From Helicobacteraceae bacterium (GTDB lineage: Bacteria > Campylobacterota > Campylobacteria > Campylobacterales > Helicobacteraceae), in assembly GCA_050874285.1 (NCBI GenBank), contig JBNMKJ010000002.1, positions 16,374 through 80,373 of the forward strand: a stretch of DNA of 64,000 bases, written 5' to 3'. The translations under genes were made by a program, and so were the position numbers. How positions within the stretch are numbered: the stretch's first letter is position 1; each line of letters starts with the position of its first letter. Below the pieces are notes generated by a model. The model worked only from the letters and a program-made list of their open reading frames with translations. It was not told where the DNA came from and searched no databases. This document shows positions 53,684 to 55,639 of this stretch, piece after piece.

Positions 53684-55639
53684 TTGAAAGATATATTTAT
53701 AACTTCGCCGATTTATTATGTAAATGACATTCCACACATAGGACACGCCTATACGACAATCGCTTGTGATGCGTTTAAAAAATATCAGATTCTTAAAGGC
53801 AACAATGCCATTTTGCTAACAGGCACAGATGAGCACGGGCAAAAGATAGAAAATAGCGCGAAAGCAAAAGGTAAAGCCCCACAAGAATACGCCGATGAGA
53901 TTAGCGCGAAATTCCGCAATCTGTGGGATTACTTTGGCATTGACTATGACTATTTTGTCCGCACCACAGATGATTACCACGATTGTGGCGTGAAACACGC
54001 TTTTGAGATTATGCAAAAAAAAGGCGACATTTATAAAGGGGAATATGAGGGCAATTACTGCGTGAGTTGCGAGACATTTTTTACCAAAAGGCAGCTAATT
54101 GATGGCGAAAAATGCCCAGATTGCGGGAAGCCCACCAAAGAGATAAAAGAAGAGAGCTACTTTTTCGCGCTAAGCAAGTATGAAAAGCGACTTTTAGCGT
54201 GGTATGCGGAAAATGAAGATGTGATTTTGCCAAAATTTAAGCGTAATGAAGTCATTAAATTTGTCGAAAATGGGCTAAGCGATTTATCCATTACGCGCTC
54301 GACTTTTAGCTGGGGCATTTCTCTGCCAAAAAGCGCGAATGATACCACGCATATCATTTATGTGTGGCTAGACGCGCTACTAAGCTATATCACGCCACTT
54401 GGCTTTGGCAATACGCGCAAGGAAAATAAAATGTCGCTATTTGAAAACGCCTATCATTTCGTGGGTAAGGACATTTTGCGATTTCACGCGATTTTTTGGC
54501 CTGCGTTTTTAATGAGCCTTGATTTGCCCCTGCCAAAGCGCATTTTCACGCACGGCTGGTGGCTGATTGAGGGTGCAAAAATGAGTAAATCTATCGGCAA
54601 TGTGGTGAATCCAAAGGATATTGCGGACGCATATAGCTTGGAGGTTTTGCGCTATTTTCTTTTGCGCGAAGTGCCTTTTGGGCAAGATGGCGATTTTGCG
54701 ATTCGCGCATTGATTGAGCGCACAAACGCCGAGCTAAGCGACAGCTTGGGGAATTTGCTAAATCGATTGCTTGGAATGAGCGAAAAATATTTCGCACTAA
54801 AGATTGAGGCAAATGATTTCACAGGGCTAAAATTCGAGCAAAAAAGCGTGGATTCAATCATAAAATCGCTAGATTCGCTAATGGAAAATATGACGCCAAA
54901 TCGCTATCTAGAGGAACTTTGGAAGCTATTTGACTTGGCAAATGGGCTAATCACGCAATATGCGCCGTGGGAGATGATGAAAGAGGGCAGGACGCGCGAA
55001 GTGGCGAGTTTGCTCGTATTTATCGCAAATATTTTGGCAAAAGCCGCGCTTTTAATCTACCCCGTGCTACCCAAAAGTGCCAAATCTATGGCGGAATCGC
55101 TGGGAATTACGCTTGATTCATACAGCGACTTAATAGCGCAATCCAAATATCTAATGAAATTTAATCTCACCAAAATTCCGCCTTTGTTTCCTAAAATAGA
55201 GGTGGATTCGTCATTGCGAGGGAGCGAAGCAACCAAAGCAATCCACGAATCGTCAAAAAGTGGCTCGTCATTGCGAGATTCGGCAACGCCGAATCGTGGC
55301 AATCCACTTGATTCTATGCCACAAATCACTATAAAAGATTTTCAAAAAATCGACATTCGCGTGGGCGAAATCTTAGAGGCGAATCGCATAGAGGGAAGCG
55401 AAAAATTGCTAGTATTTCAAATCGATTTTGGCGACTTTGGGAGGCGACAGATTGTCTCTGGAATCGCGCAATTTTACGCGCCAAATGAACTCATCGGCAA
55501 AAAAATCTGCGCCATTATCAATCTAAAACCCACTAAAATTATGGGCGTAAAAAGCGAGGGAATGCTACTAACAAGCGAGGATTCGCAGGGCGTAGCATTG
55601 CTTTTTGCTACTACAAGCTCGGGAGGAAAGGTCAGCTAA
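53684..55639 (+). CDS. metG: methionine--tRNA ligase (long form with C-terminal tRNA-binding domain)
   Basis: PIYYVNDIPHIGH, GTDEHGQKI, CPDC knuckle, KMSKS, C-terminal DIRVG..KSEGML. Confidence 0.98.
   Translation: MKDIFITSPIYYVNDIPHIGHAYTTIACDAFKKYQILKGNNAILLTGTDEHGQKIENSAKAKGKAPQEYADEISAKFRNLWDYFGIDYDYFVRTTDDYHDCGVKHAFEIMQKKGDIYKGEYEGNYCVSCETFFTKRQLIDGEKCPDCGKPTKEIKEESYFFALSKYEKRLLAWYAENEDVILPKFKRNEVIKFVENGLSDLSITRSTFSWGISLPKSANDTTHIIYVWLDALLSYITPLGFGNTRKENKMSLFENAYHFVGKDILRFHAIFWPAFLMSLDLPLPKRIFTHGWWLIEGAKMSKSIGNVVNPKDIADAYSLEVLRYFLLREVPFGQDGDFAIRALIERTNAELSDSLGNLLNRLLGMSEKYFALKIEANDFTGLKFEQKSVDSIIKSLDSLMENMTPNRYLEELWKLFDLANGLITQYAPWEMMKEGRTREVASLLVFIANILAKAALLIYPVLPKSAKSMAESLGITLDSYSDLIAQSKYLMKFNLTKIPPLFPKIEVDSSLRGSEATKAIHESSKSGSSLRDSATPNRGNPLDSMPQITIKDFQKIDIRVGEILEANRIEGSEKLLVFQIDFGDFGRRQIVSGIAQFYAPNELIGKKICAIINLKPTKIMGVKSEGMLLTSEDSQGVALLFATTSSGGKVS
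55209..55305 (+). repeat. two tandem CGTC-type palindromic repeats in frame inside metG
   Basis: 55209-55244 cgtcattgcgag..aaagcaatcc and 55266-55305 cgtcattgcga-gattcggc-aac-gccgaatc-gtggcaatcc. Confidence 0.9.

Follow-up and report, generated by a model that had tools for sequence, protein, structure and literature searches.

How two copies of a palindromic repeat that lies mainly between genes came to sit, in frame, inside the gene of an essential enzyme is the question raised by metG of a Helicobacteraceae bacterium. The gene encodes a methionyl-tRNA synthetase (MetRS) and lies in a stretch of 64,000 nucleotides (nt), here called the window (NCBI GenBank assembly GCA_050874285.1, contig JBNMKJ010000002.1, positions 16,374 to 80,373). 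A first interpretation made from the letters alone, here called the sequence-only reading, had proposed that an intergenic repeat was recruited as the interdomain linker of MetRS, and that the repeat family invades essential genes and adds new peptide at tolerant linkers. Our answer, which we hold to be very probable, is that two units of a high-copy family of CGTC-tagged repetitive extragenic palindromic (REP) sequences entered a linker that already existed in MetRS, and that they persist as this site tolerates a disordered hydrophilic peptide. Throughout this paper, G000 is the genome that holds the window, and the other G, L and P labels refer to genomes of relatives, loci and MetRS proteins, respectively.

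The two direct units are located within metG where the sequence-only reading had placed them, and their peptides are given in Table 1. They measure 39 and 43 nt, encode 13-14 amino acids (aa) each and are arranged head-to-tail, with starts 57 nt apart, the same spacing as was first reported. Unit 1 consists of a T-CGTC tag, ATTGCGAG, the weakly pairing core GGAGCGAAGCAAC, CAAAGCAAT and a CCAC tail; unit 2 consists of a T-CGTC tag, ATTGCGAG, the core hairpin ATTCGGC-AAC-GCCGAAT, CGTGGCAAT and a CCAC tail. The RNA fold of unit 2 is strong (-16.4 kcal/mol, z = -3.0), and that of unit 1, whose subfamily pairs weakly, is -7.7 kcal/mol (z = -1.2).

The position of the units in the protein was defined by domain searches and structure prediction. 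By Pfam, the catalytic and anticodon domains of MetRS extend to about residue 492 and tRNA_bind covers residues 558-635, and a class I MetRS catalytic domain and PF01588 are found in one chain, with PDB matches including 9shc, 2csx and 1pyb. The AlphaFold2 model of this MetRS (42 homologues) has a mean pLDDT of 86.5, and residues 509-548 are its sole segment below 50. Based on these domain limits and this single low-confidence segment, the units encode most of a predicted disordered tether that joins two folded modules. Bacterial MetRS proteins with a Trbp111-like domain (2csx, 1pyb, 1mkh), in which the linker varies in length, share the same architecture and boundaries, and the insert falls exactly in the connecting peptide. 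This peptide comprises 41 aa here, 27 of them encoded by the repeat units, in comparison with 16-22 aa in the repeat-free relatives. The units therefore do lie in the linker, as had been claimed, but the word "recruited" is too strong, because the linker is already present in repeat-free relatives and was only lengthened by the units.

Both metG units are true and ordinary members of a genome-wide family. The G000 genome (1.99 Mb, 50 contigs, 40.8% G+C) contains 630 units by a strict pattern versus none in reversed-sequence controls, and 874 by a looser pattern versus 18 in the controls; in the window, the 13-mer TCGTCATTGCGAG, with at most one mismatch, occurs 16 times versus 0.09 expected. 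Unit 1 has no more than three differences from seven other genomic copies, and a single one of its 43 nt separates unit 2 from the copy at C10:11544. The core of unit 2, ATTCGGCAACGCCGAAT, is the subfamily consensus across species, with 15 exact copies in G008 and nine in G006. Unit 2 had also been called nearly identical to the window copies at 14235 and 31176. Compared letter by letter, these are about 88% and 83% identical to it and belong to the same ATTCGGC-stem subfamily, so that this description was not borne out.

The general structure of the family was deduced from 795 units. At the 5' side there is an unpaired tag, CGTC in 495 units and TGTC in 217, followed by a conserved outer stem of 5 bp, ATTGC...GCAAT, in which ATTGCGAG forms the 5' side in 612 units and pairs with the GCAAT 3' box. 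A GA-rich internal loop separates the outer stem from the core, which is hypervariable yet always self-complementary (488 distinct cores, 5-30 nt long), in the window for example at 14235/14333, 33693/33796 and 40277/40373. The core forms an inner stem that varies between about 4 and 9 bp and closes on a loop of 3-4 nt. An unpaired 3' tail, CCA in 465 units and CTA in 226, completes the unit. The outer stem covaries, occurring as ATTGC/GCAAT, as ATTCT/AGAAT and as ATACT with a presumed AGTAT partner, and the mean folding energy of the units is -10.4 kcal/mol versus -3.8 kcal/mol for shuffled sequences. Units also occur as dimers, and tail-to-tail (164), head-to-head (94) and head-to-tail (82) arrangements were counted genome-wide. 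A scan of the window against Rfam gave no family match except tRNAs.

Comparison with relatives showed that linker units go together with the family. Boxes were counted as an exact 12-mer in the 40 relatives searched, and high numbers are confined to G000 (501), G008 (518), G006 (360) and G007 (171), with 0-12 in the rest of the genus; G000, G006, G007 and G008 are also the four with the most similar MetRS, at 82-90% identity. Where the family is absent or has few copies, the linkers are free of units and measure 16 aa in G003 and G009, 26 aa in G001 and 35 aa in G014. The metagenomic MetRS proteins P0036-P0045, from genomes whose family content was not searchable, have linkers of 16-29 aa with no unit. 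In the repeat-rich clade, linkers of 21-88 aa contain differing units or remnants of units, recognizable from SLRD, SLRE and HSER.. or from ..DCH..SRND and ..AQND peptides. In the metG of G006, the place of unit 2 is taken by one intact unit and unit 1 survives as a decayed remnant; the metG of G008 carries two ATTCT-type units, one of them inverted, and other metagenomic relatives carry SPLRENEQSEFSWQS...DCHDLANAKSRND, a tail-to-tail dimer, or HSERSEE...TAQND and similar peptides. Among the relatives searched for the family, only family-rich genomes have units in the linker, and hence the same linker peptide was not met with in family-free genomes. A second in-frame insert, SDSQMDSQGDSNKDSRKDSPK, was observed in G008 metG (L003:2095-2160) within the C-terminal tRNA-binding domain; it is made up of the word GATTC, iterated and translated each time as Asp-Ser, and G000 lacks it.

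The two units appear to differ in their history. On a MetRS tree built without the linker residues, the unit-2-type peptide (PSLRDSA..) is found in P0027 and in most of the sister clade including P0001, and two outgroup pairs are without it. Because of this distribution, unit 2 is best read as an old insertion common to the 14-row clade, which would later have been replaced or have decayed in some lineages. Gene conversion from copies in the same genome was considered as the cause of the young appearance of unit 2 and is not needed, because the core ATTCGGCAACGCCGAAT is the shared subfamily consensus and the G006 metG copy is uniquely diverged. For unit 1, alignment of the DNA with a Logan contig revealed an exact 42-nt segment that is present in G000 and missing in the ERR2136667 relative (Table 1). 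The tree speaks more for a precise loss of unit 1 in the P0003/6/8 lineage than for a recent gain in G000. Since G006 keeps a remnant of unit 1 and the lineages without it are nested, a precise loss seems slightly more parsimonious than a recent gain, with the polarity of the indel ambiguous.

The same comparisons bear on two other explanations of the inserted peptide. The first is an assembly artefact: in assembling a draft or metagenome-derived genome, short repeats from other places would have been collapsed into metG or joined to it as a chimera. It is consistent with the 50 contigs of the draft genome, with the nearest relatives being metagenome-assembled genomes and with the occurrence of the exact G000 MetRS sequence on one contig only. 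However, the frame is open through both units and the flanking domains are intact, the units are shorter than typical reads, and five different close relatives have related linkers. An artefact is considered highly improbable, because unit 2 is found at the same codon position, with matching unique flanks, in independent assemblies, namely G006/L002, the Logan contig ERR2136667/L069 and several metagenomic MetRS. The second explanation regards the linker as a former intergenic spacer with REPs, read-through of which would have fused metG to a Trbp111-like gene that was once separate. Free-standing proteins of the Trbp111/CsaA type do exist, and the repeats are stop-poor and mostly intergenic. 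In every MetRS examined, however, the C-terminal region is fused to the core, including those of repeat-free genomes with 16-22-aa linkers, and no close relative was seen in which separate metG and Trbp111-like genes are divided by REPs. As MetRS was present in 41 of 41 genomes of the order searched and is fused in repeat-free ones too, the joining of core and C-terminal domain predates the repeats; the probability of a split-gene origin of the linker is negligible, and it was rejected.

Insertion into genes is not restricted to metG. Units were counted as deep inside a putative gene when at least 60 aa from its start and at least 30 aa from its end, and 146 strict units satisfied this definition in 84 of about 1726 putative genes (4.9%). 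The proposed invasion of essential genes by the family, with peptide gained at tolerant linkers, thus holds both for metG and across the genome. The density of units is 11-fold lower within genes than outside (0.14/kb versus 1.56/kb). By the looser pattern, an open frame of at least 100 aa extends to each side of 111 units in 63 open reading frames (ORFs), a few of which are weak pattern matches or pure arrays. Pfam hits were obtained for 15 of 19 tested host genes, which confirms these as real genes, and in about 11 of them the units are located between domain hits; examples are listed in Table 1. At one site of ligA, which encodes NAD-dependent DNA ligase, G000 has three in-frame units and G006 a single one, and G008 has no unit there. 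Those of G000 (L038, C5:43608-45773) are one ATTGC-type and two ATTCT-type units, one of them inverted, and they lie towards the end of the adenylation domain. Several housekeeping proteins look longer than expected for their families, including CarB (1259 aa, L032), ValRS (963 aa, L034) and a YidC-like ORF (890 aa, L036), which suggests further inserts beyond the counted units; in the YidC-like case, a fusion or an ORF extended too far is also possible.

Table 1. Features of metG in the window (nucleotide positions) and other unit-bearing proteins of G000 (residue positions).
Feature	Position	Strand	Basis or remark
metG, methionyl-tRNA synthetase, 651 aa, frame intact	53684..55639	+	ORF list; Pfam PF09334 5e-105, PF01588 1e-24; PDB MetRS matches to 1e-141
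Core, catalytic and anticodon-binding, residues 1-508	53684..55207	+	Aquifex MetRS core 2csx aligned to residues 1-505; AlphaFold2 confidence high to ~508
REP unit 1, residues 509-521, peptide SSLRGSEATKAIH	55208..55246	+	TCGTCATTGCGAG-GGAGCGAAGCAAC-CAAAGCAATCCAC
Spacer between units, 18 nt, peptide ESSKSG	55247..55264	+	ORF translation
REP unit 2, residues 528-541, peptide SSLRDSATPNRGNP	55265..55307	+	TCGTCATTGCGAG-ATTCGGCAACGCCGAAT-CGTGGCAATCCAC
Disordered linker (predicted), residues 509-548	55208..55327	+	AlphaFold2 pLDDT <50
Trbp111/EMAP-like tRNA-binding C-terminal domain, residues ~547-641	55322..55606	+	PF01588 at 558-635; 1pyb, 8vtz, 1mkh from 541-549 to 641
42-nt segment, exact, present in G000, missing in ERR2136667 relative	55213..55254	+	DNA alignment with Logan contig L069; left bound GATTCGTC, ends GAATCGTC
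Antisense ORF, 90 aa, reads ...GLPRFGVAESRNDE...WIALVASLPRNDES...	55057..55329	-	Spans metG units; ORF list
CarB	residues 1007-1020		between ATP-grasp and MGS domains
ValRS (valS)	residues 512-545
PBP1	residues 583-613
LigA	residues 240-286
Dxs	residues 548-558		between domains II and III
GlmS	residues 189-234		between amidotransferase and SIS domains
ABC-F	residues 293-307		inter-ABC linker
Type IIG restriction-modification enzyme	residues 532-570
Autotransporter	residues 924-1003		directly before beta-domain
HypF and others			further unit-bearing hosts

The proposed course of events is as follows. Units would arrive anywhere in the genome by a mechanism specific to the repeat, with the hairpin and the CGTC tag as its targets, and purifying selection would then clear those insertions that shift the frame, add stops or disrupt folded regions, so that surviving units would be left at linkers and loops. 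In metG the outcome would be the 41-aa linker in place of one of 16-22 aa, probably with no effect on aminoacylation, and substitutions and in-frame indels would let this linker drift. For such a mechanism, one candidate enzyme alone was seen, a putative GIY-YIG nuclease of 98 aa, the gene of which is located in repeat clusters.

Y1/RAYT transposases (PF01797) gave no match in the four repeat-rich genomes G000, G006, G007 and G008, and were rejected as mobiliser on this ground. Their absence from these genomes fits the statement that CGTC REPs have no dedicated transposase (PMC3733652). Besides uvrC, G000 contains one GIY-YIG ORF (98 aa, C9:57624-57917), outside the window, in the unit cluster C9:57479-58100. 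Two units lie directly upstream of this ORF and two downstream, and the core GGAGCAACGCGAC is common to the nearest upstream and the second downstream unit. The same gene was found in G008 (L073) and G009 (L072), in each case amid 10-11 box matches in 3.2 kb, and the whole genome of G009 has only 13 boxes. In 151 Helicobacteraceae genomes, with kinship ignored, a GIY-YIG homologue is present in 17 of the 43 with at least four boxes versus 4 of the 108 with fewer (Fisher p = 9e-8), and with the threshold raised to at least ten boxes in 11 of 31 versus 10 of 120 (p = 4e-4); the correlation spans six genera. A homologue was also observed in G016 (96 boxes) at C13:24642-24917, about 4 kb from a Y1 PF01797 match (29031-29312), the only such match among the genomes searched. 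In a literature search of incomplete coverage, no publication linking GIY-YIG to REPs was found.

Several observations weigh against the explanation outlined above, or against parts of it, in addition to the single contig with the exact MetRS sequence and the ambiguous polarity of the unit-1 indel. A CGTC or target-site duplication 3' of the unit, as at unit 1, is not general: a nearby extra CGTC was found at 23 of 794 units, and in most of these 23 cases it is the tag that a third subfamily, CGTCATACTGAG, carries. The GIY-YIG homologue is missing in 20 of the 31 repeat-rich genomes, including G006 and G007, and for this reason it is regarded as no more than a candidate mobiliser; the gene could equally be a selfish gene homing into repeat clusters. 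The reading frame of the intragenic units is strongly biased. Among those in the same orientation as the gene, 81 of 98 (83%) use the SSLR frame, with a split of 81:10:7; those in the opposite orientation fall into two frames (46 and 28), the frame that bears TGA being unused. Stop codons were ruled out as the cause of this bias, the three forward frames of intergenic units being similarly stop-free (0.71, 0.63 and 0.79). Hydrophilicity, judged by mean hydropathy, was ruled out as well, since RHCE, the most hydrophilic frame, is used only rarely. The frame bias is more than simple tolerance would give and may reflect peptide selection or a biased phase of insertion. Furthermore, intragenic units have a mean fold of -11.2 kcal/mol versus -10.1 kcal/mol for intergenic units, and exact boxes in 82% versus 70%. 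They are therefore not more decayed, which is difficult to reconcile with plain neutral relics, as these are expected to decay. Together, the frame bias and the well-kept state of the intragenic units are compatible with selection that acts on peptide or hairpin, or with insertion in a preferred phase.

The corresponding alternative is that the units are themselves selected, as a longer, Ser/Asp/Glu-rich flexible tether for the dimerising tRNA-binding domain or as a stable mRNA hairpin that pauses ribosomes where the domains meet or sets mRNA half-life, the SSLR frame being kept on purpose. Apart from the 81:10:7 split left unexplained by stops and the folding of intragenic units at least as well as intergenic ones, it could account for the location of units at domain boundaries in many hosts and for the properties of unit 2, which has a strong hairpin, was kept clade-wide and still matches the subfamily consensus core, also in G006 and G008. 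The boundary location, however, is what purifying selection alone would leave, and at the metG site peptide and length differ freely from one close relative to the next (21-88 aa, differing subfamilies, both orientations). Unit 1 has been lost or has decayed in close relatives with the gene unharmed, and the repeat-free relatives work with linkers of 16-22 aa. We consider selection for the units improbable, and insertion into a tolerant linker preferable.

A further alternative concerns how the units spread. They may have been copied in events akin to recombination (gene conversion or template switching from other copies, for instance), guided by GATTC/CGTC microhomology or by an older resident unit, with neither nuclease nor transposase involved and with the GIY-YIG gene as an independent homing gene. 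The direct repeats GATTCGTC and GAATCGTC that bound the unit-1 indel point in this direction, as do the differing subfamilies at one site in different lineages (ATTCT-type in G008 versus ATTGC-type in G000), the lack of a general target-site duplication, the many repeat-rich genomes without the GIY-YIG gene and the lack of a known transposase for CGTC REPs (PMC3733652). Hundreds of dispersed copies at unrelated sites nevertheless call for a dispersal mechanism, and the conserved unpaired tag and tail resemble recognition sites; the flanking of the GIY-YIG gene by units with the same core is REPtron-like, and its presence correlates with the repeats over several genera. On balance, copying by recombination is possible but doubtful. 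The most far-reaching version of the opposite idea is in our opinion unlikely: that the units are non-autonomous partners of the 98-aa GIY-YIG nuclease, which would be the missing mobiliser of the whole CGTC-REP superfamily, that they are still active in this Helicobacter clade, where about 5% of the proteome would have its interdomain linkers and loops rewritten, and that their near-exclusive frame (SSLR.. forward, DCH..SRND/LAMT reverse) results from peptide selection.

The family can be compared with several known systems. CGTC-tagged REPs, including dRS3 of Neisseria and RPE-4 and RPE-6 of Rickettsia, were described by Di Nocera, De Gregorio and Rocco (2013, BMC Genomics 14:522; PMC3733652), who also reported in-frame intragenic CGTC and GTAG REPs, among others in glyS and ileS, and proposed that they are neutral in linkers; no transposase is known for CGTC REPs. 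The present units resemble them in the unpaired 5' CGTC tag (with variants TGTC, CCTC), which is often TGTC, in a stem that opens with A-T and T-A pairs, in the unpaired CCA tail, in hundreds of mainly intergenic copies that often form inverted dimers, in the absence of Y1/RAYT, and in some in-frame intragenic units, tRNA synthetase genes included. CGTC families 1-4 (Table 1 of PMC3733652) have a uniform stem of 8-9 bp with a loop of 4-5 nt, and head-to-head dimers dominate in them while tail-to-tail dimers are rare. In contrast, the stem here is a composite of the 5-bp outer stem, internal loop and variable core, and tail-to-tail dimers outnumber head-to-head dimers. Other differences from the published CGTC REPs are the host, as Helicobacteraceae are not listed there, a much larger intragenic load (84 genes) and the presence of a GIY-YIG gene in unit clusters. 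In-frame repeats in tRNA synthetases and linkers are thus already published, and metG is one case among many.

Rickettsia palindromic elements (RPE) are another close parallel. According to the passages of PMC10969869 and PMC3184786 that refer to Ogata et al. (2000, Science 290:347), 44 copies were found, about half of them in ORFs, and this was called unusually frequent. RPEs, as portrayed in these passages, and the present units are both palindromic selfish repeats that occur in frame in unrelated, often essential genes, with an added peptide that fits fold and function. RPE-1-type elements are given there as about 100-150 bp, encoding about 30-50 aa; the units described here are smaller (30-45 bp, 10-15 aa each) and often form dimers or arrays. 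Measured against the same accounts, the host here is a free-living or gut lineage of Campylobacterota rather than an obligate intracellular alphaproteobacterium, and 146 units in 84 genes compare with 44 RPE copies. Similarities also exist with REPIN-RAYT systems (Nunvar et al., 2010, PMC2817692; Bertels and Rainey, 2011, PMC3116915), namely short hairpin repeats that are often inverted dimers, persistence and vertical inheritance in a clade, and a single-copy nuclease-type gene flanked by repeats in a REPtron-like manner. Unlike in those systems, the tag is CGTC and not GTAG, no Y1 domain (PF01797) is found in the four repeat-rich genomes, and the flanked gene encodes a GIY-YIG protein of about 98 aa that is missing from many repeat-rich relatives. 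With the incomplete literature coverage mentioned above, no publication on this repeat family, or on in-frame REPs in Helicobacter, was found.

The 90-aa antisense ORF over the metG units (Table 1) is most likely spurious and held open by the stop-poor repeats; the reverse frames of units in the genome are often free of stops. Gene callers could annotate ORFs of this kind as hypothetical proteins.

Taken alone, the metG insert is one more case of selfish palindromic DNA turned into protein at a tolerant linker. The value of the finding lies in its scale, in the turnover of the units, in the frame bias and in the GIY-YIG lead rather than in in-frame REPs as such, which are already in print. For annotation, stop-poor repeats yield spurious ORFs and inflate protein lengths. 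As for the mechanism, CGTC REPs are without a known mobilising enzyme, and the GIY-YIG gene located in unit clusters of three genomes is a directly testable candidate. Between close relatives, the same site may be occupied anew, in decay or cleanly vacated, as in the metG linker and the adenylation domain of ligA, which lets gain and loss be dated. With about 84 genes, many of them essential, carrying in-frame units, this clade might offer a natural experiment on the tolerance of proteins to random insertions in linkers and loops.

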